Of a stretch of 32,000 nt of DNA, positions 1 through 10,481 are shown in pieces. The notes beneath the pieces were generated by a model. It did not search any database, had not been told where the DNA came from, and worked only from the letters and a program-made list of their open reading frames with translations. The stretch's first letter is position 1. Each line of letters starts with the position of its first letter. Both the position numbers and the translations under genes were made by a program. The DNA comes from Propionibacteriaceae bacterium (GTDB lineage: Bacteria > Actinomycetota > Actinomycetes > Propionibacteriales > Propionibacteriaceae): contig JAIRQE010000016.1 of NCBI GenBank assembly GCA_031256725.1, forward strand, positions 4,099 to 36,098. Reading direction: 5' to 3'.

Positions 1-371
1 ATGGAAACCCGATGGGTAGACCTACCTTCTCTCGGCAAAATCCAAGTAAACATCCGCCCTGTACCAGCGTACACATCATGCCCGCAAAGAATCGTGTCCC
101 CAGGGCGGGTGAGGACGCGCACTAGGGTGTCCTCGGCATTTAGCCCTGAGGGAAAGGCGACGGCTCCAGCCCCAGATTCGAGGCTAGCTAAGGCTTCCTG
201 GTAGCGGTCCCTCGTCGGATTTCCTGAGCGGGAGTAGTTGTACCGATCTGGTGCTCCTTCAATACCGTCGAGTTGAAAGGTTGATGCAAGAACAATGGGT
301 GGTACAACGGCCCCGGTGAGGGGATCACTGGCTTGGCCGACTTGCACGGCTCGTGTCGAAAATCCTGGCAT
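1..371 (-). CDS. Cys/Met-metabolism PLP-dependent enzyme (cystathionine gamma-synthase/gamma-lyase-like), N-terminal 123 codons; continues beyond the left edge
   Basis: My own reverse-strand translation from the ATG (complement of 369-371) gives MPGFSTRAVQVGQASDPLTGAVVPPIVLASTFQLDG...YNYSRSGNPTRDRYQEALASLESGAGAVAFPSGLNAEDTLVRVLTRPGDTILCGHDVYAGTGRMF. This matches the conserved N-terminal blocks of MetB/MetC-type enzymes (SRxGNPTR, FxSGxxA, RPGD). It is missing from the ORF track because it has no stop codon inside the window. Confidence 0.8.
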   Translation of the reverse strand, partial: MPGFSTRAVQVGQASDPLTGAVVPPIVLASTFQLDGIEGAPDRYNYSRSGNPTRDRYQEALASLESGAGAVAFPSGLNAEDTLVRVLTRPGDTILCGHDVYAGTGRMFTWILPREGRSTHRVS

Positions 372-434
372 GAATCTCTTTCGTGTTCGGTGGGCGCACA
401 GATACGCCTAAAAGGTGTGGGGAGGGGTGTACAC

Positions 435-480
435 GCGCAGGCCAGCAGATGGCAGAGATGCTTTGGTTAGCGGCCCGCGC
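435..480 (-). promoter_or_regulatory. Leader-RNA stem in the 5' UTR of the cystathionine-enzyme gene
   Basis: The arms at 472-480 and 435-443 form 9 contiguous pairs on the minus-strand transcript: GCGCGGGCC ... GGCCUGCGC, including one G-U pair. On the plus-strand transcript the same position is an A/C mismatch, so the stem is strand-specific. The 5' arm lies inside the last four codons of the minus-strand mini-ORF. Confidence 0.4.
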
Positions 481-541
481 ACAGCATTCGACCACAGCAC
501 ATGGCGGAACACATCGCCATTGGGATCTGGGTCGTACACAT
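467..541 (-). CDS. Candidate leaderless Cys/Met-rich leader peptide (24 aa): MCTTQIPMAMCSAMCCGRMLCAGR
   Basis: My own translation of the reverse strand; the ORF is below the 60-aa cutoff of the ORF track. The peptide has 5 Cys and 5 Met in 24 residues. There is no SD, but a TANNNT-type hexamer (TAGCTT, complement of 549-554) lies 7 nt upstream of the ATG, which is compatible with a leaderless mRNA. The ORF lies about 95 nt upstream of the cystathionine-enzyme start codon. Confidence 0.45.
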   Translation of the reverse strand: MCTTQIPMAMCSAMCCGRMLCAGR

Positions 542-581
542 GGGAAAGAAGCTACAGTTCCTTACCTAAGAAACCTAATTA

Positions 582-598
582 GTCTCAATAATTGAGAC
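582..598. promoter_or_regulatory. Perfect 17-bp palindrome GTCTCAAT-A-ATTGAGAC (candidate operator) in the divergent promoter region
   Basis: The 8-bp arms are exact reverse complements around one central base. The site lies 41-57 bp upstream of the minus-strand mini-ORF ATG and 83-99 bp upstream of the plus-strand mini-ORF ATG. Confidence 0.35.
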
Positions 599-680
599 AA
601 ATAGACTTTTTTGGTGAACTATGAGTAATGTAATGCCCCAGCTGGGAAAGCCAGTTGTTTCGCAATAGCTAGGAGGAGTC

Positions 681-728
681 ATGGCCACAACCATGGTGAA
701 CACCTTCTGCTGTTGTATGTGTATGTGA
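681..728 (+). CDS. Candidate Cys/Met-rich leader peptide (15 aa): MATTMVNTFCCCMCM
   Basis: A strong SD (AGGAGG, 671-676) is followed by a 4-nt spacer and the ATG at 681. The codons are ATG GCC ACA ACC ATG GTG AAC ACC TTC TGC TGT TGT ATG TGT ATG TGA. The peptide has 4 Cys and 4 Met in 15 residues. Its stop lies 145 nt upstream of the URO-D-like gene. Confidence 0.5.
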   Translation: MATTMVNTFCCCMCM

Positions 729-873
729 CGCGCTAGCTATTCAGAGCTAGGGGATGGTCCGATTCTGGGCTGTCTTGGTGAATGAGCCCGCGTCATTTTC
801 TGTTGTCATCCAACACATCCTCCCCGTTATTCTCGGGGAAAATATCACAATCATACAACAATAGGAGTTTATT

Positions 874-1896
874 ATGTCCACACGTCTGGAAACCTTCCAG
901 AACATCATCAACGGCCAAGGCGAAGGGTACCTCACCGCTGCCTGGAAGCATTTCGTTGGCGAGGAGTACGACCGTGCCCGCTTCGTCAAAGCACATGTCG
1001 ACTTCGTCCAGCAATGGGATTGGGACTGGGTCAAGATCAACCCACGAGCCAATTATTATGCAGAAACATGGGGTGCAAGTTACGACCCCACCAACTATGA
1101 CATCATGGTCCCAACCCTCGTTGAGGCTGCGATCACGAAGCCAAGCGATCTGTCCAAGATCGTCCCACTCAAGGCTCAGGACAACCCGATTCTTCGTGAA
1201 GAAATCGCCAGAGCCCGAGAAATCAAGCAGGCTTTCCCCGATCGTGCAGTGATCCAATCGGTCTTCTCGCCACTGGGTGTACTGCTCTTCTTGGCAGACA
1301 TCCATCCCTTCCCGCCAGGTCCAGGTAGGGAAGCCAACGGCCCAGTCTCACTGACAGACCTGTTGGACACTGATCGAGCATTGACCCTCAAGGCTCTCGA
1401 AGCCATCACCGAGACCCTCAAGGACTATGTCATCGAACTATTGAAGCCAGTCGAAGAAGGTGGAGCCGGTCTCGACGGGATCTTCTATGCCGTCCTCGGA
1501 TTACCGTCAAAGAGCTTCATCCCCAAGGACAAGTTCGACCAGTTGTCCACCCCATTCGACTTGGGTGTCCTTGAAGCCGCCAAGGGTTCAGCTGTGGTCT
1601 TCCACACATGTTCAATGGACTCTCATCCTGATTGGTTCACTCAGTGGCCATTGAGTGCATTGCAATGGGATCAATTCCTTGACGGAAACCCCGATATTAC
1701 AACCGATCTGGGTGTGATCCCGGTGGGTGGACCCGAGGCTCGCCTGTTTGAAGAAGGGCAAGACCTTGACCTTCTCCAAGAGCAGTTGGCCCGTACCCTC
1801 GAACAGCGTCAGGGCAAGCCGTTCCTGCTCGCTTCAAGCTGCTCTTTGCCGCTGCATACATCCGATGAAGCCCTCGAGATCCTCAGCAAAGCCTGA
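874..1896 (+). CDS. Uroporphyrinogen-decarboxylase (URO-D) fold family protein with an MT2/MtaA-like HxC...C zinc-thiolate motif (putative thiol methyltransferase)
   Basis: This is a 340-aa ORF with an SD-like GGAG at 864-867, 6 nt before the ATG. The N-terminal pattern (HF..EEYD.A.F.KAH.DF...WDWD..KIN) is typical of non-HemE URO-D family members. It carries H244-T-C246 (VVFHTCS) and C323 (LASSCSL). The functional call is an inference. Confidence 0.6.
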   Translation: MSTRLETFQNIINGQGEGYLTAAWKHFVGEEYDRARFVKAHVDFVQQWDWDWVKINPRANYYAETWGASYDPTNYDIMVPTLVEAAITKPSDLSKIVPLKAQDNPILREEIARAREIKQAFPDRAVIQSVFSPLGVLLFLADIHPFPPGPGREANGPVSLTDLLDTDRALTLKALEAITETLKDYVIELLKPVEEGGAGLDGIFYAVLGLPSKSFIPKDKFDQLSTPFDLGVLEAAKGSAVVFHTCSMDSHPDWFTQWPLSALQWDQFLDGNPDITTDLGVIPVGGPEARLFEEGQDLDLLQEQLARTLEQRQGKPFLLASSCSLPLHTSDEALEILSKA

Positions 1897-1916
1897 AACA
1901 CAGAAAAGAGAAGAAA

Positions 1917-3068
1917 ATGAAAAAGAAAACACTCGCATCCCTTGTTATAGGTTTGGCCTTTGCTCTGAGCGCCTGCGCAGGACAGGGCGATCAGACGCAG
2001 ACAACTGACCAGGCCCAAGACTCTCCAGTGACCTTTGGGGTGATCTATCCTAAGACTGGTTCCTATGCAGAATATGGCCGTCTGTTCGAACAGGGTCTAG
2101 AACTCGCAGTGGAGAAGGTGAACACTGATGGTGGAATCCATGGTCGCGACCTGAAACTGAAGTACTTTGATACTCAGTCCGATCCGAAGCAAGCAGCAGC
2201 GGTCGCGCCCAAACTCGTTGTTGATCCAGAGATTATCGTCGTCCTTGGTGACTATTCTTCTTCCTCATCGAAGGCGGCCTCACCAGCATTCCAGCAGGCG
2301 GGTTTGGTTCACTACGGATTCAACAACTCGGCCACAGACTTCCCGTCAACTGGTGACCATGTGTGGTCCCCGAGTTTTGGTACAGACTCCCTGATGCCAG
2401 TATGGGCAGACGCTATCGCTGATACTGGCGCGAAGACAGTTTCGGTGATCTATATCGAAAATGACTGGGGTTTGCAGGCCTACGATTATTTCGCAGACCA
2501 CATCAAGACTCTTGGAGTCGAGATCGTCTACACCTCAGCCTACCCTGCGACACCAACTGATGATTATTCACCCATCCTCATCAAGGCTCGCGATGCCAAG
2601 GCGGATGCGATCGTACAGATTGGTTATGCCGAAGGTGCTCAGATTGTCAACACCCTTCGTGACACTCTCGGCTATAAAGGTCCCTTCTATGGTGGTCAGA
2701 GGACTCCAGAGTTCTTGGATATCGCAGGCAAGAATGCTGAAGGATCGATCCTGAATGGACACTTCTCGAACGAAACAACTGTGCCTAGGGTTCAGGAGTT
2801 CTTGGCTGACTTCCGTGCAGCTTATGGAGTGGATCCGGGTGACTTCAATCTTTCTGCTTACCAGGCGGTGATTGACCTTGCCTATGGGATCAATAAGACT
2901 TCTCCCACTCGTGAGGGAGTGCAAGAAGCCCTACAAACAGTGACCGATTTTCCTGCCTATATTGGTCAGGCCGACACCTTCGCTTTCGATCAGGAAACCC
3001 GTCGACTCCTTGATCCGAAGCCCGGGCTTGTCATCGTTGAAGATGGCGAATTCAAACCATACAACTGA
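1917..3068 (+). CDS. ABC transporter substrate-binding lipoprotein, type I PBP (LivK/branched-chain amino acid binding family)
   Basis: The N-terminus has a signal peptide with a lipobox (LAFALSAC). Family-typical blocks are present: FGVIYPKTGSYAEYG, KLKYFDTQSDP and VVLGDYSSS. Confidence 0.9.
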   Translation: MKKKTLASLVIGLAFALSACAGQGDQTQTTDQAQDSPVTFGVIYPKTGSYAEYGRLFEQGLELAVEKVNTDGGIHGRDLKLKYFDTQSDPKQAAAVAPKLVVDPEIIVVLGDYSSSSSKAASPAFQQAGLVHYGFNNSATDFPSTGDHVWSPSFGTDSLMPVWADAIADTGAKTVSVIYIENDWGLQAYDYFADHIKTLGVEIVYTSAYPATPTDDYSPILIKARDAKADAIVQIGYAEGAQIVNTLRDTLGYKGPFYGGQRTPEFLDIAGKNAEGSILNGHFSNETTVPRVQEFLADFRAAYGVDPGDFNLSAYQAVIDLAYGINKTSPTREGVQEALQTVTDFPAYIGQADTFAFDQETRRLLDPKPGLVIVEDGEFKPYN

Positions 3069-3075
3069 TGATCGT

Positions 3076-3103
3076 GTGGAGGGCCTCACAGGGGGCCCTC
3101 CAC
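3076..3103 (+). promoter_or_regulatory. Intercistronic GC-rich hairpin between the SBP and permease genes
   Basis: GTGGAGGGCC (3076-3085) and GGCCCTCCAC (3094-3103) form a perfect 10-bp stem with an 8-nt loop. It starts 8 nt after the SBP stop codon, and no U-tract follows. Confidence 0.6.
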
Positions 3104-3170
3104 GCTCCGTCAAGTCATCCCGCGTACTGCAATTGCATGCAGGACAGGATCCAGACCGAAAGACCACACC

Positions 3171-5027
3171 ATGATTGACACACTTATTGCCGGACTCCTT
3201 CACGGAAACATCTACGCTCTCATCGCCGTGGGGATGTCCCTGATTTTCGGCGTGACACACGTCGCCAACTTTGCTCATGGGTCCATCTTCGCCATTGGTA
3301 CCATGCTGGGTTGGTTCCTGGGAGCCCAATTGGGATGGGGGATCATCCCAACTCTTGCAGCTGTCATCGTCATCACATCACTGCTTGGCTGGATCATTTC
3401 TGTACTCGTCGTAGGCCCCCTCGCACAGGGTCCACCGATCGCTGCCCTTCTAGCCACGATAGCTGTGGCGATGATCCTCGACGCACTCTCCCAGGTGATT
3501 TTCACTCCCGTGACACGCAAATTCCCCGAATTGCTTCCCACTCACAATCTTCAACTCGGTGGAGTCCACTTTGGTACTTCCTCTGTCGTCATGCTCATCG
3601 TCACAATAGTCTCCATGGCTGCCCTGTGGGCCTTCCTTCGTTTCGGGAAGCTAGGTCAGGCTATTCGTGCAACGGCCCAAGACTCGGATTCGGCCAAGCA
3701 GGTCGGGATTCCGGTCGAAAGGATTCGCCACCTCTCCTTCATCATCGCTTCCGGCCTTGGGGGTATGGCTGGGATCTTCATGGGATTGTTCAACTCAACG
3801 ATCAATCCTTCCACTGGTGCCATCGCTGGCCTGACCGCATTCGTGGCAGCAACAATTGGTGGATTGGGATCCATGCCCGGTGCTGTCCTTGGTGGGCTCC
3901 TTCTTGGAGTAACGGAAGCCTTTGGTGTGTACTTCCTAGGCGGCTCCTATCGTGACATCATCATCTTTGGTGCTCTGGTTCTCATCCTCCTTCTGCGTCC
4001 AGCCGGGTTGGTTGGCAAGAAACTGGCAATTGAAACAGAGCCTATGACTCGTACCTTCCTTGGAGGTACACGCCCAATCCAGTTGCCATGGTTCGGCAAC
4101 CTGGCTCTCATCGCTGGCCTAGCATTCATCCCGATCCTCTTTGGCCCTCAAATGGGCTCAGTTATCGCTGGTGTTGGTACCCAGGTTTTCGCGTACGCCA
4201 TCGCAGCAATCGGGTTAACCATCATTGCTGGAGGTACAGGCCAGATTATTCTCGGCCAAGCTGGTGCAGTGGCTATGGGCGCCTATGGTTCAGCACTCCT
4301 ATCGGTTCACTATGGGTGGCCCTTCCTTGTCACCATCATTGCTGGGGCACTGATCGCTGCTGTGATCTGTTCGATTTTGATCTTCCCAGCATGGAAACTT
4401 TCAGGTCATTACGTGGCTATTGCCACGATTGGTGTGGGTTTCATCACAGTGGCCTTACTCAAGGTTTTAGAGCCCATCACCCGTGGTGTCAACGGAGTCT
4501 ATGGGATTCCTTATCCGGCAATCTTCGGTCTGCAGATCACCGATATTCGGGGGATCTACTGGGTGAATCTGGTTCTGATGGGGATTACCCTATTGCTCGT
4601 CACAAAGATCATGGCCTCCCATCTCGGGAAGACTATTTCATCGATTGGTGCCGATCCGGTTGCGGCTGCATCCTTGGGTATCCGTGTCACTGGGTACAAG
4701 GGGTTGGCTTATGCCATCTCCGCATTCTTTGCAGGTCTTGCGGGGGCTCTGCTAGCCCATCAGTACACCTACATTGAGCCAGGTCAGTTCGATTTGAATA
4801 TGTCAACAGTACTTCTGGCGATCATCGTGTTGGGTGGATTGCGTTCACCATTGGGTGCTGTCCTGGGGGCGATCATACTTCTGGGGGTACCAGAATTACT
4901 GAGAACCATCTTTGAAGACATCACCTGGTTTGTCTCCATCTTCCCCCATGCGCGCATCATCGTCTATGGACTGACCCTTATCCTCATCATCCGCTTCCGC
5001 CCGCAGGGCCTCTTCCAAAGGAGCTAG
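3171..5027 (+). CDS. Fused LivH-LivM type ABC permease (branched-chain amino acid transporter family)
   Basis: The product is 618 aa. The N-terminal half is LivH-like (GLLHGNIYALIAVGMSLIFGV..ANFAHGS). The C-terminal half is LivM-like (AGGTGQIILGQAGAVAMGAYG). It is highly hydrophobic throughout. Confidence 0.9.
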   Translation: MIDTLIAGLLHGNIYALIAVGMSLIFGVTHVANFAHGSIFAIGTMLGWFLGAQLGWGIIPTLAAVIVITSLLGWIISVLVVGPLAQGPPIAALLATIAVAMILDALSQVIFTPVTRKFPELLPTHNLQLGGVHFGTSSVVMLIVTIVSMAALWAFLRFGKLGQAIRATAQDSDSAKQVGIPVERIRHLSFIIASGLGGMAGIFMGLFNSTINPSTGAIAGLTAFVAATIGGLGSMPGAVLGGLLLGVTEAFGVYFLGGSYRDIIIFGALVLILLLRPAGLVGKKLAIETEPMTRTFLGGTRPIQLPWFGNLALIAGLAFIPILFGPQMGSVIAGVGTQVFAYAIAAIGLTIIAGGTGQIILGQAGAVAMGAYGSALLSVHYGWPFLVTIIAGALIAAVICSILIFPAWKLSGHYVAIATIGVGFITVALLKVLEPITRGVNGVYGIPYPAIFGLQITDIRGIYWVNLVLMGITLLLVTKIMASHLGKTISSIGADPVAAASLGIRVTGYKGLAYAISAFFAGLAGALLAHQYTYIEPGQFDLNMSTVLLAIIVLGGLRSPLGAVLGAIILLGVPELLRTIFEDITWFVSIFPHARIIVYGLTLILIIRFRPQGLFQRS

Positions 5028-5029
5028 TC

Positions 5030-6646
5030 ATGACCATGAACCAATACGAAGTATCTGCTCTGACAGTCACCCAACTCAGCAAGAGTTTCGGGTCCCTGAA
5101 AGCTGTTGACGACGTTTCTTTTGTGATCCAACCCGGTGAGGTGGTCTCCATCATCGGTCCTAATGGATCAGGGAAAACCACTCTCATCAACCTCATCTCA
5201 GGGCTTCTGCAACCCGATTCGGGAGCCATTGTCTTTGCAGGTCAGGATCTCACACGAGCCAATCAGGTGGGTGTGTGTGAAGCGGGCATAGGTCGTACCT
5301 TCCAAAATGGACGAGTCTTTGCAAGCATGACTGTCGATGACAACGTCGAACTTGGGCTACACAGCAAGCTGACAGCGAACCGTCCGGGTAAAAGGTTCTC
5401 CAGATTCCCTGTAGGTAACTGGGTCAACCTTCTCGCCGAGGCGGCTGTGTCCTTGATTCCCTCACCTCAAGCGAAGAAGGAGTTGGCCAAAGCTCAGGGC
5501 AAGATTGACGAGCAAATTGCCCGATTCAAGACTCGTCTCGAACCTCGACGCAACCACCTTGCGTATACACTCTCCTATGCGAACAGGCGACGTACGGAAA
5601 TTGCGCGAGCCCTCGTCGCCCAGCCCAAGCTTCTCCTTCTTGATGAGCCCACCGCTGGGATGAATCAGGCCGAAACCAAGGAGGTGTTACGCCAGCTTCT
5701 CGAACTGAAGCAAGAAGGACAGTCCATGCTCCTGGTTGAGCATAAGATCGATTTGGTGTTGACCCTCTCCGATCGGGTGATCGTCATGGACTCTGGCAAG
5801 AAGATCGCTGAAGGCAAGCCCGATAGCTTGCATGAAAATCCGGTCGTCATGGAAGCCTACCTGGGTACGCGCCGTGAGGCGATCACTGTACGACCACCGC
5901 GTCCCGCTAGTGATGAACCGCTCCTTGAACTGGACAATGTCAACATCTTTTATGGGCTAGTACAAGCCCTCACCGATGTGTCGCTTACAGTAGGCAAGGG
6001 AGAAATTGTCTCCCTTCTTGGAGGAAATGCTTCAGGAAAGTCGACAACCATGAAGACAATTCTTGGTTTGCTTGAGCCCAAGACTGGCACAGTCACATTC
6101 CAGGGGAATAATCTCACGACCGCGAGTACAGCCGCCCGGGTTCGAGCGGGGATGGCATCTGTACCCGAGGCTCGACGGATCTTCCCAGAGATGACTGTTT
6201 ACGAGAACCTCATGTCGGGGGCCTATACCCGCATGGATCGACAAGGTATTCGTGAGGATCTCGACAGGGTCTTCGAGTATTTCCCCCGCCTGTGGGAGAG
6301 GAAAAACCAGGATGCTGGAACCCTCTCAGGAGGGGAACAGCAGATGCTGGCCTTTGGTCGAGCCCTGATGACGAACCCCGTACTCATCTGCATGGATGAA
6401 CCCACAATGGGTTTGGCCCCCAAACTCGTCGAACAGGTACTAGAGCAGATAGCCCACCTGAGAAATGAACTTGGTGTCTCAGTTCTCATGGTTGAGCAAC
6501 AAGCAGAGTTGGCGCTGTCCATCGCCGACCGTGGCTATGTTCTCAACCAAGGGGAGATCACCCTTCAAGGATCTGCCCAGACACTCCTGGATGATCCCGG
6601 ACTTAAGGAGGCTTACTTTGGTCGCCAACCCGAGTACAACATCTAG
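5030..6646 (+). CDS. Fused LivG-LivF type ABC ATPase (two nucleotide-binding domains)
   Basis: Two Walker A motifs are present (GPNGSGKTT and GGNASGKST), along with two ABC signature/Walker B regions (LSYANRRRTEIARAL..LLLLDEP and LSGGEQQML..LICMDEP). The start lies 2 nt after the permease stop. Confidence 0.9.
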   Translation: MTMNQYEVSALTVTQLSKSFGSLKAVDDVSFVIQPGEVVSIIGPNGSGKTTLINLISGLLQPDSGAIVFAGQDLTRANQVGVCEAGIGRTFQNGRVFASMTVDDNVELGLHSKLTANRPGKRFSRFPVGNWVNLLAEAAVSLIPSPQAKKELAKAQGKIDEQIARFKTRLEPRRNHLAYTLSYANRRRTEIARALVAQPKLLLLDEPTAGMNQAETKEVLRQLLELKQEGQSMLLVEHKIDLVLTLSDRVIVMDSGKKIAEGKPDSLHENPVVMEAYLGTRREAITVRPPRPASDEPLLELDNVNIFYGLVQALTDVSLTVGKGEIVSLLGGNASGKSTTMKTILGLLEPKTGTVTFQGNNLTTASTAARVRAGMASVPEARRIFPEMTVYENLMSGAYTRMDRQGIREDLDRVFEYFPRLWERKNQDAGTLSGGEQQMLAFGRALMTNPVLICMDEPTMGLAPKLVEQVLEQIAHLRNELGVSVLMVEQQAELALSIADRGYVLNQGEITLQGSAQTLLDDPGLKEAYFGRQPEYNI

Positions 6647-6892: not shown

Positions 6893-7168
6893 ATGGAGAC
6901 TGGTGATTTGGTTGCAGTGTGGGCCACTGAGACTGGTGTGCCCCAGAAGTTTGAGTGGCGTGGACACTCTTATGTGGTCTGTGGTCATCCTGTGCCATGG
7001 GTGGATCGCCTGCCGTGGTGGAGCCTTGGACAGGAGGGACCGCTGAATGCATTGGAGCAGCAGATGTGGAGGGTCTCGGGGGTGAATCCCGATACTGGTC
7101 ATGTCACCTGTGTGGATTTGGCTGTGGAAGAGCCCTCATGGTGGCGGCTGGCGAGTATTCACGAGTGA
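6893..7168 (+). CDS. Small Trp-rich protein of the kind found next to actinobacterial mutasome genes (DUF6504-like, family name from memory)
   Basis: The product is 91 aa: ...PQKFEWRGHSYVVCGHPVPW......WW......MWRVSG......DLAVEEPSWWRLASIHE. The GAGG SD is 6 nt upstream. The stop (7166-7168) lies immediately before the polymerase ATG at 7170. Confidence 0.65.
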   Translation: METGDLVAVWATETGVPQKFEWRGHSYVVCGHPVPWVDRLPWWSLGQEGPLNALEQQMWRVSGVNPDTGHVTCVDLAVEEPSWWRLASIHE

Positions 7169-7169
7169 C

Positions 7170-10100
7170 ATGTCGACAGGGTTTGTGCATTTGCATGTGG
7201 CGAGTTGTTTCTCGACACATTTTGGTACTGCGTGGCCTGAGGATTTTGTCCTGGCTCAGAGCTTATCCCCGGCGGCAGCATTAACGGATCGCGATGGATT
7301 TTATGGGGTGGTTCGCCATGTACGAACCTGTCTTGAAGTGGGGATCTCGCCCATCGTGGGGGTAGACCTATGCGTGGGTTCTCATGATCGTGTGAGGCTG
7401 GACAGTACCCGTGGAACCCGTGCTCATAACACCTATGACGGTGGAATAGTTGGTGGCCAGATTACGGTCCTGGCCCATGGGCATGATCATGGTGTGGGGT
7501 GGGCGAGTGTTTCTCGTCTTATTTCTGCTGCCCATCATGATGGGGTCAAGAATGGGCCAGGGACGATTAACCGAGCGGCGATGGTTACCCCGGATCGAAT
7601 CCCATCCCTTCTTTGTGGGGATGATGGACCCTGTGCGACCATTCTTCTTGGTCCGGAGTCTGATCTAGGACAGGCCGTCTTGGCTTCAGATGTACCACGG
7701 GCGAAAACCCTTCTCAGGGCTTGGAAATCCGCATTTCCGAATATCGTGATCGAGATCTCAAGTCATTACACGCAACCAGGGATGAGTGGGTCGATACCCC
7801 ATGCGGCCGGGATGTTTGAGATGGCTTTAGCGAGTGGTACTCCGTTTGTACTCACGAATGCTGTGCGCTATCTCCACCGCGATGATGCGATCACTGGGGA
7901 TCTTCTCGATTCAGCTGGACGCCTGCAACCAATGGGGAGTTTTGATCCGCAGCCGAATGCCCAAGCCTGGCTCAAGGATGCGAAATCTATGCGACAGGTG
8001 GCTGAGGATGTGGCCAGATATGCCGGGGAGCCTGGGTTGGCGACGAGGCTTTATGAATCACCACTGCCCTTGGTGGAGCGCTGTGTTGTGGATCCGCATG
8101 AGGATTTGGGGTGGCAGCGAGCCAAGGTGCCAGAACTGGAGGTGATAGGCCTGTCAGGGGACCCTCAAAAGATCTTGGATGAGCGATGTCGAGGAGGGTT
8201 GGTACATCGGTGGCCACGTCCTAATCAGGATCTTCTGAATCAGATCACAGATCGGTTAAACACTGAACTTCGGATCATCGAGTCCTTCGGTTTCGCAACC
8301 TATTTTCTCATGGTGGCAGATGTCGTTGATCTGATTAAAGGTCTCAAAATTAGGGTACAAGCGCGCGGTTCGGGAGCAGGGTCGCTGGTCAATTATTGCT
8401 TGGGAGTCTCGAACGTGGATCCGGTGGAGAATGATCTACTTTTCGAGCGTTTCCTTGGGCTCAAGAGGGAGACCTTGCCCGACATCGACATTGATGTGGA
8501 ATCTGCCAGGCGCCACGACGTGTACTACGCAGTCACGCGTAGGTATGGGTCCCATCGGGTGGCTCTGCTGTCGATGCAAAACCAGTACAAGACTCGTGGT
8601 GCTCTCAGGGATACTGGCCTGGCTCTGGGGTTGCCGAACGAGAAGATTGACCGTACCGCCAAATCCTTATGGAGACTCAATGTATCCGAGATATCTGAGG
8701 CACTGAAATCTCGACCCGAGTTGGCGGAACTCGCCCGTGAAGTCGACGCTGATCCACGATTGCGGGTACTTCTCAACCAGAGTAAGCGGCTGTATCGCTT
8801 GCCGCGCTATATTGCTATGCACCCGTGTGGGGTGATCCTTTCAGACCAGCATCTGCTCAGTCTGACGCCGACCCAGCCTTCTGGGCTGGGGATTCCAATG
8901 AGCCAATTTGATAAGGATGATATTGACGACATGGGATTACTAAAGCTAGATATTTTGGGGGTACGGATGCAATCCACGATTGCCTACACCCTCGACGAGA
9001 TTGAACGCCGTCACGGGGACAGGGTTGATGTGGAGACCATCGCCTTCGATGATGAACCCACTTTCGACCAGATTCGTAGTACCCACAACCTGGGGGTGTT
9101 TCAGATCGAATCCCGTGGTCAGCGTGAACTTGTCGGCACAATGCAGCCGGATTCTTTCGCTGATCTGGTGGCTGACATCTCGCTGTATCGCCCAGGGCCG
9201 ATGAAAAGCAATATGATTACTCCCTTTGTGGAGGCGAAACTGGGATTTCGTTCACCCCAATGCCTGCATCCGCGTTTTCGTCAGACTCTGGGGGACTCCT
9301 ATGGTGTGGTGATCTATCACGAACATGTGATTCGGATCCTCGCTGACTGTATGGGGATCACCTTGGGGGAAGCTGATGGGGTGCGCCGACGACTGGGGAA
9401 GCACCACGACGATGTTGAAGTGGAGTTCCGGACTCGAGCTGCGCAACGCAGTGATGAGCATGGGCGGCGACTGTTCACTGATGCCTATATTGATCGAATC
9501 TGGGAAACCATGAAGAGTTTTGGTAGCTTCGGATTCTGTAAGGCTCATGCAGCGGCTGTTGCGGTGACCACCTATCAGTCGGCCTGGTTGAAGACCCATT
9601 ATCCGGTCGAGTTCATGGCTGGGATCATGGAACATGGTCCAGGGATGTACCCCAAGAGACTCCTACTCACCGAAGCTAAACGCATGGGGATTCCCATCTA
9701 CGGGATCGACGTGAACACCTCGACTGACCATTATCGGGTTGACGAGGGGGCCCAGGGTGCGGGGATTCGGATGCCCTTCATCGAGATCAAAGGGATCTCT
9801 GGGACAGAGGTACGTCGCTTGATCGAGGGGCAACCCTATTCCTCTGTTCTTGATGTGATCCAACGTGGAAGGGTTTCGCGTGTCACGATGCAGCGGTTGG
9901 CTGGGATTGGTGGCCTCGATTCTGTGTCACGCGGCTCCTCTAGGGGTACAATCCTCGCGCAGGTACGCCATCTCACAGCTCGACCAATCGCGACACCCTG
10001 TGAAGATCAGGAGGCACTCGTGGATGAGGATGGGGTCTCAACTATCGTCTTTCCTGAGGTACCCGACGTGGATCCCCTTTCTGCAGAACTCGACATTCTC

Positions 10101-10481
10101 GGTATTGATGTCAGTGGCCATGCCCTTGATCCGTGGAGGGGACTCTTGGATGAGATTGGTGTCACCCCTGTTGATCAGCTCTTGAATCTGCGCAACAACT
10201 CTCGAGTAGTTGTCGCTGGAATCCGAGTTTCCGCCATGACCTCACCCAGCAAATCCAAGAAGCGTGTGGTCTTCATCTCCCTCGACGATGGTACAGGTGT
10301 GGCTGACTGTGCTTTCTTTGATGATGCTCAACATCGTGTTGGTCCCGACCTGTTTCGTACCCGGTTGCTCGCCGTCAAAGGGATCACCAGACGTACAGGG
10401 GCTAAGGGGATCAGCATCAATGCTACTGAAGCCTGGGATTTCACCCGTGCGGTGTCACAAGATACATCTCATGATATCTGA
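7170..10481 (+). CDS. dnaE2: Error-prone DNA polymerase III alpha-type subunit (DnaE2-like)
   Basis: The product is 1103 aa from the ATG at 7170. The ORF-track start at 7101 would overlap the upstream gene. It has an N-terminal PHP-like region (FVHLHVASCFS, ALTDRDGFYG), a polymerase core with LPDIDIDVES catalytic aspartates, FQIESRGQ, LYRPGPM and FGFCKAHAAA blocks, and a C-terminal OB region. The size and the LexA box favour DnaE2 over the replicative DnaE1. Confidence 0.8.
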   Translation: MSTGFVHLHVASCFSTHFGTAWPEDFVLAQSLSPAAALTDRDGFYGVVRHVRTCLEVGISPIVGVDLCVGSHDRVRLDSTRGTRAHNTYDGGIVGGQITVLAHGHDHGVGWASVSRLISAAHHDGVKNGPGTINRAAMVTPDRIPSLLCGDDGPCATILLGPESDLGQAVLASDVPRAKTLLRAWKSAFPNIVIEISSHYTQPGMSGSIPHAAGMFEMALASGTPFVLTNAVRYLHRDDAITGDLLDSAGRLQPMGSFDPQPNAQAWLKDAKSMRQVAEDVARYAGEPGLATRLYESPLPLVERCVVDPHEDLGWQRAKVPELEVIGLSGDPQKILDERCRGGLVHRWPRPNQDLLNQITDRLNTELRIIESFGFATYFLMVADVVDLIKGLKIRVQARGSGAGSLVNYCLGVSNVDPVENDLLFERFLGLKRETLPDIDIDVESARRHDVYYAVTRRYGSHRVALLSMQNQYKTRGALRDTGLALGLPNEKIDRTAKSLWRLNVSEISEALKSRPELAELAREVDADPRLRVLLNQSKRLYRLPRYIAMHPCGVILSDQHLLSLTPTQPSGLGIPMSQFDKDDIDDMGLLKLDILGVRMQSTIAYTLDEIERRHGDRVDVETIAFDDEPTFDQIRSTHNLGVFQIESRGQRELVGTMQPDSFADLVADISLYRPGPMKSNMITPFVEAKLGFRSPQCLHPRFRQTLGDSYGVVIYHEHVIRILADCMGITLGEADGVRRRLGKHHDDVEVEFRTRAAQRSDEHGRRLFTDAYIDRIWETMKSFGSFGFCKAHAAAVAVTTYQSAWLKTHYPVEFMAGIMEHGPGMYPKRLLLTEAKRMGIPIYGIDVNTSTDHYRVDEGAQGAGIRMPFIEIKGISGTEVRRLIEGQPYSSVLDVIQRGRVSRVTMQRLAGIGGLDSVSRGSSRGTILAQVRHLTARPIATPCEDQEALVDEDGVSTIVFPEVPDVDPLSAELDILGIDVSGHALDPWRGLLDEIGVTPVDQLLNLRNNSRVVVAGIRVSAMTSPSKSKKRVVFISLDDGTGVADCAFFDDAQHRVGPDLFRTRLLAVKGITRRTGAKGISINATEAWDFTRAVSQDTSHDI

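Follow-up and report, generated by a model that had tools for sequence, protein, structure and literature searches.

The 32-kb stretch of DNA analysed here (the window; contig JAIRQE010000016.1) comes from a metagenome-assembled Propionibacteriaceae genome. Close to its start, two very short open reading frames (ORFs) rich in cysteine and methionine codons point away from each other in the region between a cystathionine gamma-synthase (CGS)/lyase family gene and an operon encoding a URO-D-like, MtaA-like putative methyltransferase and an ABC importer. We consider it likely that these two ORFs are independent ribosome-stalling leader-peptide attenuators, each attached to its own operon, which came to lie back to back by an accident of gene order. 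The initial annotation, which had singled out the pair as possible regulatory uORFs, described its sequence accurately. On the plus strand, AGGAGG (671–676) is followed by AGTC and by the ATG at 681, and direct reading of positions 681–728 gives MATTMVNTFCCCMCM and a stop codon, with four Cys and four Met among 15 residues. On the minus strand, the frame extends from the ATG at 541 to a stop codon ending at 467 and encodes MCTTQIPMAMCSAMCCGRMLCAGR, with five Cys and five Met in 24 residues. This second ORF lacks a Shine–Dalgarno (SD) sequence, and the hexamer TAGCTT (549–554 in plus-strand coordinates) is located exactly 7 nt upstream of its ATG. The flanking genes, too, are those that had been proposed, Pfam placing a Cys_Met_Meta_PP gene on the minus strand and the URO-D-like/ABC operon on the plus strand.

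Both mini-ORFs are non-random. The six frames of the window contain 282 ATG-initiated short ORFs (sORFs) of 8–40 codons, and four or more Cys codons occur in just two of them, namely the pair described here. When positions 372–873 were shuffled 20,000 times with preservation of dinucleotide composition, one sORF with at least four Cys including a Cys–Cys pair on each strand was obtained in 0.05% of the cases. The features of regulatory leaders attributed to the two ORFs, each of them upstream of sulfur-amino-acid genes (putative ones in the plus arm), were likewise borne out. By comparison with Rfam, the whole 32 kb gave no match to a known RNA family at the gathering score, and a permissive search of positions 300–950 (E up to 10) returned merely two chance-level matches with E>5. 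Control by a known riboswitch or T-box (SAM, Met/Cys T-box) was dropped, since no relevant Rfam match was found.

The leader on the plus strand (681–728) ends in Cys-Cys-Cys-Met-Cys-Met-stop, its Cys codons occupying positions 708–716 and 720–722 and its terminal Met codons positions 717–719 and 723–725. Orthologs of the URO-D-like gene were taken from one genome and from metagenome assemblies, and their upstream regions were scanned for sORFs; the scan of genome contigs with a single URO-D-like protein yielded a single locus, in Alloscardovia (L001). If the plus-strand ORF is a leader, its frame and its Cys codons should be conserved, and both the reading frame and the Cys run are indeed kept in the orthologous upstream regions. 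The leader of locus L002, MNHTMMPTSCCCICL, ends in CCCICL-stop, that of L003 and L004, MMNLMTPTSCCCMCL, in CCCMCL-stop, and that of Alloscardovia criceti (L001), MINSNNTFEGTAVQMLRSCLCCCMSR, in CLCCCMSR-stop; the leaders of L005 and L099 represent a second sequence type, MSRSMSG.SH.TMRA...CCPCQRCM.S..-stop. The constant feature of the family is thus a Cys run near the stop codon, which is found in six lineages of Propionibacteriales and Bifidobacteriales 5′ of the same operon. With a Cys run that adjoins the stop codon and is kept upstream of orthologs, the plus-strand ORF corresponds to the Cys leaders described in 2005 (Seliverstov, PMC1262725). In the Bifidobacterium loci L096–L098, no clear Cys leader precedes the URO-D-like gene, which there follows genes for a class I/II aminotransferase and a LysR-type regulator (1–1422); this suggests that protein-based control replaces attenuation in these bacteria.

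The plus-strand ORF is not leaderless, as its AGGAGG stands 4 nt 5′ of the ATG, and an SD sequence is also present in L002 and L003, where the alignment shows a GGAGG core and GGATG, respectively. Among the plus leaders, the arrangement TATAGT-N7-ATG occurs only in the Alloscardovia version (L001:2627–2642), which appears leaderless. Since the Propionibacteriaceae versions have a strong SD, the plus-leader family includes both initiation modes. Upstream of the SD, a putative hairpin of the 5′ untranslated region (CUGG-GAAAG-CCAG, 641–657, plus strand) has a counterpart of different sequence, CUGCA-CCG-UGCAG, at the same place in L002, a weak indication that comes from two sequences.

Conservation extends into the RNA that follows the plus leader. 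An alignment of the window with L002 and L003 shows hardly any change between the Cys codons and the end of TGACGCGCTAGCC, and from these three sequences RNAalifold predicted a four-helix junction at 726–795 of the plus strand, in which the closing helix P1 pairs UGACGCG (726–732) with CGCGUCA (789–795). P1 begins at the stop codon of the leader. Of the cells of the alignment that form the junction, 98.6% are paired, as against 32–44% in slid controls, and five pairs display compensatory changes. The four-helix junction is accordingly supported by covariation, although this support is not conclusive because three sequences are few. The junction is followed by a pyrimidine-rich, G-poor spacer (796–854, plus strand), which is a candidate loading site for Rho; its best 60 nt contain 18 C and 6 G, and its C/G ratio of about 2.7 lies above the 99th percentile of the window. 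Consensus terminator scans of the window, L001, L002 and L003 gave no convincing terminator between leader and gene, and no intrinsic terminator hairpin with a U tract was seen on the relevant strands of the window, L002 or L003. P1 is followed by UUUUCUGUUG in the window only, and it is a helix of a branched structure. At the end of this region, positions 855–885 of the plus strand, comprising the ribosome-binding site (RBS; AGGAG, 863–867) and the first four codons of the URO-D-like gene, are identical at 29 of 31 positions in the three aligned sequences, although the URO-D-like proteins themselves are just 55–57% identical. Such nucleotide identity at this level of protein identity implies a constraint at the RNA level. 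The predicted partner of the gene start, AUGUGU (717–722) with ACACGU, showed no covariation.

For the minus-strand ORF, the full CGS gene was obtained in L006, close CGS orthologs were collected, and the leader motifs were compared by means of anchoring by hand and a regular expression. Homologous sORFs in the same frame are present in L007, in L008/L009 and in L095. The four CGS-type loci have in common a −10 hexamer of the TANNNT type, a distance of exactly 7 nt, a start codon (ATG or GTG), an open frame of 18–25 codons and an in-frame CGA ATG near its end. The hexamer and the peptide are TAGCTT and MCTTQIPMAMCSAMCCGRMLCAGR in the window, TAATTT and MSMTGRFFMASSNSAISGRMLCADR in L007, TATACT and FSTDSMTTICRCRMPSA in L008/L009, where the start codon is GTG, and TATACT and MFSTATATMMRGQFVLSACRMR in L095, where the sORF is located upstream of a PALP–CGS operon. 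The leaderless geometry that had been proposed from the window is therefore seen again in three other CGS-type loci. Between the window and L007, nucleotide identity amounts to 69.5% in the sORF, 50% in the spacer and 67.5% in the CGS coding sequence, so that the sORF equals the coding sequence in conservation and exceeds the regions on either side of it. The distance from the sORF to the CGS family gene downstream is 95 nt, which places it in a cysteine-gene context.

The mRNA of the minus arm is predicted to begin with a 5′-terminal hairpin (484–539, minus strand), in which nt 3–15 pair with the conserved GGUCGAAUGC motif (nt 44–58). Each of the four loci has the motif G[TA]CGAATGC, and in each it pairs with the mRNA's initial 15 nt, start codon included; duplex energies range from −10.9 to −14.8 kcal/mol, and 1–6% of shuffles are as good. 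A hairpin formed by GCGCGGGCC and GGCCUGCGC (435–480, minus strand), which carries the stop codon in its loop, appears in both the minimum free energy and the centroid fold. It has an analogue in L007 (GCGGA...UCCGC) and is, taken alone, not statistically significant. The remaining spacer (372–434, minus strand) is C-rich and G-poor and includes a weak SD (GAAAGAG) before the CGS start; its best 60 nt contain 23 C and 10 G, and the corresponding figures in L007 are 25 and 6.

A metagenome scan with the CGS alignment extended the comparison to distant relatives, with 43–53% identity for the matches listed; no close ortholog was among these. Among these, four distant loci (L013, L020, L028 and L074) possess classic polyCys leaderless sORFs upstream of cbs–CGS operons, encoding MLTCRCCR, MALTCRCCL, MFDFSCCCCR and MFNFSCCCCR, each followed by a stop codon; a search for Cys-rich sORFs in the 400 nt upstream of the distant CGS genes listed gave only chance-like matches. 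The sORF of L008 has TGTCGCTGT...CGC in common with the distant polyCys sORFs, and that of L095 reads C-R-M-R-stop where the distant relatives have C-R-C-C-R-stop. In view of these likenesses, the minus-strand sORF looks like a diverged member of the polyCys leaderless sORF lineage, whose known members precede cbs/metB-type genes.

As neither a canonical terminator nor a conserved masking of the RBS was found, the exact mechanism by which the leaders would act can only be inferred. When charged tRNA-Cys is plentiful, the ribosome would complete the plus leader and leave, and the junction would fold. The folded junction would lower expression of the operon for the MtaA-like methyltransferase and the importer, most likely through premature termination, Rho-dependent or atypical, on the naked pyrimidine-rich spacer; a block of translation is a less likely route in this arm. 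When cysteine is short, the ribosome would pause at the last regulatory codons and occupy the 5′ strand of P1, so that the junction could not form and expression would rise. On our estimate of footprint size, P1 would presumably be covered only by a ribosome whose A site holds the last Cys codon, a Met codon or the stop codon. In the minus arm, the leaderless 24-codon sORF would do the same job for the CGS/lyase gene. A palindromic operator travelling with the plus module, discussed below, may add control at initiation. The proposed mode of action is supported by both spacers, which are C-rich and G-poor and without a canonical terminator, as in the 2005 description of Cys leaders (PMC1262725).

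Several observations weigh against this interpretation. In the plus arm, the structural evidence consists of three sequences, and a ribosome paused at the first three Cys codons would presumably miss P1, if our estimate of the footprint is right. Moreover, the Cys tract pairs well with the RBS in the window (z −1.85), a pairing that is not kept across the relatives; the duplexes of the Cys tract with the downstream SD at six loci have z values of −1.85, +1.17, −0.45, −0.81, −2.46 and +0.09. The Ms5788A mechanism, in which the Cys tract pairs with the downstream SD (10.1101/834739), is thus not conserved here, and RBS masking of this type was dropped as a general mechanism because pairing of the 3′ end of the leader with the RBS is not conserved. 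In the minus arm, the Cys codons, whose conservation the initial annotation had regarded as decisive, have not been kept: there are five in the window as compared with one in L007, two non-adjacent ones in L008/L009 and one in L095. No conserved tract of consecutive Cys codons was found in this ORF, the window having Cys–Cys at codons 15–16. Furthermore, the leaderless sORF element is missing at three close CGS loci (L092, L094 and L010), and the complete minus leaders are no more stable than shuffled sequences (z −1.3 to +1.6).

The alternatives differ in what they make of the arrangement, of the minus-strand element and of the peptides themselves. The initial annotation had presented the back-to-back pair as a single arrangement controlling both arms of a divergent locus. 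This part of the proposal was not upheld, as the URO-D and CGS modules have unrelated neighbours in every relative; the upstream neighbour of the plus module differs from locus to locus and is never a CGS gene. It follows that the pairing is specific to the window genome and does not constitute a system. Between the two ORFs lies a perfect 17-bp palindrome, GTCTCAATAATTGAGAC (582–598), a candidate operator of the plus-strand promoter. It is the sole perfect copy in the window, where no second good copy that would make it a regulon motif was found. Related sites, TCTCA-N5-TGGGA in L002 (L002:2691–2705) and TCTCA-N5-TGGTC in L003 (about 65–80 nt upstream of 2220), are positioned 36–38 nt upstream of the −10 element of the plus leader, and no palindrome-like site precedes the CGS leaders of L007, L008 or L095. 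Since the site accompanies the plus module and is absent before CGS leaders elsewhere, it can be assigned to that module, and it has the look of an operator through which the plus operon would be regulated. In public annotation, a gene of 39 residues is called on the minus strand (575–694; L006:1580–1699), running across the palindrome and the beginning of the plus leader; it has no Pfam match and is probably spurious. The distribution of the palindrome, together with synteny, indicates that two modules, each conserved on its own, have been brought together in the back-to-back layout. That the two sORFs and the palindrome would instead form one integrated bidirectional unit, selected as a control region for both arms, appears improbable to us. 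Although the centre of the palindrome (590) is about 49 nt from the minus start at 541 and roughly as far from the probable plus start (near 641), and although both arms would be concerned with sulfur amino acids, the modules are separate in all relatives examined, their neighbours being HAD hydrolase, luciferase-like, DUF805, amino-acid ABC, PALP and Aminotran_5 genes, and the palindrome-like site goes with the plus module in L002 and L003. We also think it rather unlikely that the minus-strand element acts chiefly as structured 5′ RNA or as a site for protein binding, represented by the GUCGAAUGC motif hairpin, with an ORF and a Cys/Met content that are incidental. Such a role would be in keeping with the lack of conserved Cys codons and with the fact that the best-conserved part is a nucleotide motif, which in four loci pairs with the very 5′ terminus of the mRNA and its start codon; in L008, this motif falls outside the ORF, owing to an in-frame TGA ahead of it. 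It is harder to reconcile with a start codon placed exactly 7 nt after the −10 hexamer in 4/4 loci, with a frame that has stayed open over 18–25 codons although indels have occurred (several in-frame ones separate the window from L007) and with ATG triplets that are frame-specific; nor is there an Rfam match or a significant overall fold. Finally, the products of the sORFs might not be sensors at all, but small Cys/Met-rich peptides with a function of their own, for instance as metal or redox binders or as precursors of modified peptides. We give this explanation very little credence: only the Cys/Met cluster is conserved, with the remainder varying between lineages, even if the composition resembles thiolate/thioether metal ligands and the C-terminal Cys cluster is retained. 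The neighbours are an importer and metabolic enzymes, with no maturation or export genes, the conserved RNA structure begins at the stop codon, and position and length are as in known attenuators.

A further alternative concerns the interleaved Met codons, in which the initial annotation had seen a sign of combined sensing of charged tRNA-Cys and tRNA-Met. These codons are not noise. In ten related sORFs, 31 internal ATG triplets are in frame, none is in the +1 frame and one is in the +2 frame, and Met accounts for 14% of the codons as compared with 2.0% in twelve proteins of the window. A lineage-corrected test, in which each of five lineages was represented by its Met-poorest member, gave 13 Met in 112 codons (P ~4e-7), with 13 of 14 ATGs in frame (P ~6e-6). 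In nine of the ten sORFs, a Met codon that adjoins Cys lies within the last six codons, and the classic distant polyCys sORFs among the matches listed contain no internal Met. This excess keeps dual Cys/Met sensing alive, albeit unproven. Met and Cys codons would then both be regulatory, a shortage of either charged tRNA-Cys or elongator tRNA-Met would derepress the operon, and in some CGS leaders Met would have replaced Cys; we regard this as a tentative proposal with the odds against it. Consistent with it, the last six codons are where a paused ribosome would cover a structure starting at the stop codon, L007 and L095 retain three internal Met and just one Cys, with Met standing in L095 within a context that has Cys in the distant relatives, and the regulated genes, one for an enzyme of the CGS family and one for a putative thiol methyltransferase resembling MtaA/MetE, would be situated at the interconversion of cysteine and methionine. 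Yet L002 has Ile at the position where the others have Met (CCCICL-stop), and the ATGs may serve RNA pairing, CAUG being self-complementary and AUGUGU being predicted to pair with ACACGU. In-frame ATGs could also be spare starts, with out-of-frame ATGs being avoided. In addition, a shortage of methionine limits initiation as well, which complicates the logic, and a full-text literature search revealed no precedent for a leader-peptide attenuator that senses methionine. It is tempting to speculate that the leaders are OR-gates for cysteine and methionine starvation and that the CGS leader, in L007 and L095, has switched from Cys to Met sensing in part of the Propionibacteriaceae; we consider this possible, if doubtful.

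The window contains the 5′ part of the CGS/lyase family gene (1–371, minus strand; Pfam PF01053), whose product starts with MPGFSTRAVQ as in orthologs. The best NCBIfam match of the full gene in L006 was NF005871, with 474 bits, which is below the cut-off of 513. In L094, tandem CCGAACCGTCCCGGAC-like repeats (~1830–1960) stand upstream of the CGS ortholog instead of a leaderless sORF. In the plus arm, the first gene (874–1896) encodes a URO-D-fold, MtaA-like putative zinc thiol methyltransferase, which matches Pfam URO-D weakly; sequence searches of NCBIfam and of the PDB gave no hits. The family has an invariant His-x-Cys...Cys motif (HTC...C). The AlphaFold2 model of the protein has a pLDDT of 95, and its best folds in the PDB are 4AY8 and 4AY7 (MtaA from Methanosarcina mazei; TM 0.77), followed by uroporphyrinogen decarboxylases and then by MetE. 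In MtaA and MetE, His-x-Cys...Cys binds the zinc that activates the thiol for methyl transfer. Judging from the model, the URO-D-like protein is probably a zinc thiol methyltransferase, and it might methylate a thiol such as homocysteine supplied by the importer. The latter is of the Liv type and belongs to the same operon (1917–6646, plus strand), with a Peripla_BP_6 binding protein, a fused LivHM-type permease and a double ABC ATPase according to Pfam; the order of the importer genes after the URO-D-like gene is the same in L002, L003, L005, L096 and L099, and the binding-protein and permease genes come next in each of the loci compared. The target of the plus leader is thus an uncharacterised MtaA-like protein with the HxC...C motif, accompanied by an amino-acid-type importer, and the operon may have a role in sulfur amino acid metabolism. 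A megablast search of positions 1–3100 against plasmids gave no match. Unrelated to the leaders, a DUF6504 gene is located directly 5′ of the gene for a DnaE2-type error-prone polymerase alpha subunit (window 6893–10481; L006:7898–8901), in the usual layout of a mutagenesis cassette.

The initial annotation had not recognised the arrangement as a described one, and in this respect its claim of novelty was too strong. Cys leader peptides are already known: they were tested in mycobacteria in 2020 (10.1101/834739) and have been predicted in Propionibacterium and Bifidobacterium. What does look new is the target operon, the RNA junction and the frame-specific excess of Met codons. PolyCys leaderless sORFs have been shown experimentally to be Cys-responsive attenuators in M. 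smegmatis (Canestrari et al. 2020, 10.1101/834739). As in the mycobacterial class (Ms5788A/Rv0815A, the ‘Cys ribulon’), short ORFs with consecutive Cys codons are found here upstream of sulfur/cysteine operons, the minus-strand ORF matches the leaderless geometry of −10 hexamer and start codon, and control would be independent at each locus, with one amino acid in common. The plus leader differs from that class in being SD-led and is, for this reason, not a member of it; the minus-strand sORF differs in that its Cys run is short, internal and not conserved in the closest relatives. The Met enrichment observed here was not reported for the mycobacterial sORFs.

The 2005 study described Cys leaders ‘without obvious terminators’, proposed the involvement of Rho and reported no conserved RNA structure (Seliverstov, PMC1262725). 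These leaders come from the same two bacterial orders and, like those considered here, carry their Cys run close to the stop codon and lack a terminator hairpin; in both cases the spacers are rich in pyrimidines and Rho-dependent termination is proposed. Their targets are different from the MtaA-like methyltransferase with its Liv-type importer and from the stand-alone CGS gene, and neither a structure comparable to the four-helix junction after the stop codon nor Met enrichment was noted for them. The classical attenuators (trp, his, leu and ilv, as well as the ilvB uORF of Corynebacterium and M. tuberculosis: PMC10272879, PMC13236596) likewise combine clustered regulatory codons with a downstream fold that is set by the position of the ribosome. 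In contrast to those systems, the fold here is a multi-helix junction, and neither a simple GC-rich hairpin with a U tract nor a clear terminator/antiterminator alternative was found. The leader of the tna operon, tnaC, resembles the plus leader in having a candidate Rho loading region directly 3′ of the leader stop codon and no intrinsic terminator. In tnaC, however, arrest at the stop codon depends on the peptide and on tryptophan, not on codon starvation, and nothing in the present leaders points to an arrest peptide.

Leader ORFs with Cys codons have been tested only in mycobacteria, and the present comparison indicates that Propionibacteriales and Bifidobacteriales have kept the same logic, in SD-led as well as apparently leaderless form. 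It adds to the Cys-leader regulon a new operon, that of the MtaA-like putative zinc thiol methyltransferase and the Liv-type importer, and thereby provides a functional lead for a URO-D-like family that is without annotation or a solved relative. The junction anchored at the stop codon of the plus leader offers a concrete structure for the study of ‘terminator-less’ attenuators in actinobacteria. To our knowledge, control by methionine is known only from riboswitches, T-boxes and protein regulators; the frame-specific, tenfold excess of Met codons, which had not been described, would, if functional, extend leader-peptide attenuation to this amino acid. If the dual-sensing proposal were true, the leaders would be, as far as our literature search shows, the first leader-peptide attenuators to read the charging of elongator tRNA-Met, and the uncharacterised operon of the MtaA-like methyltransferase and its importer would be tied to the salvage of methionine and cysteine.

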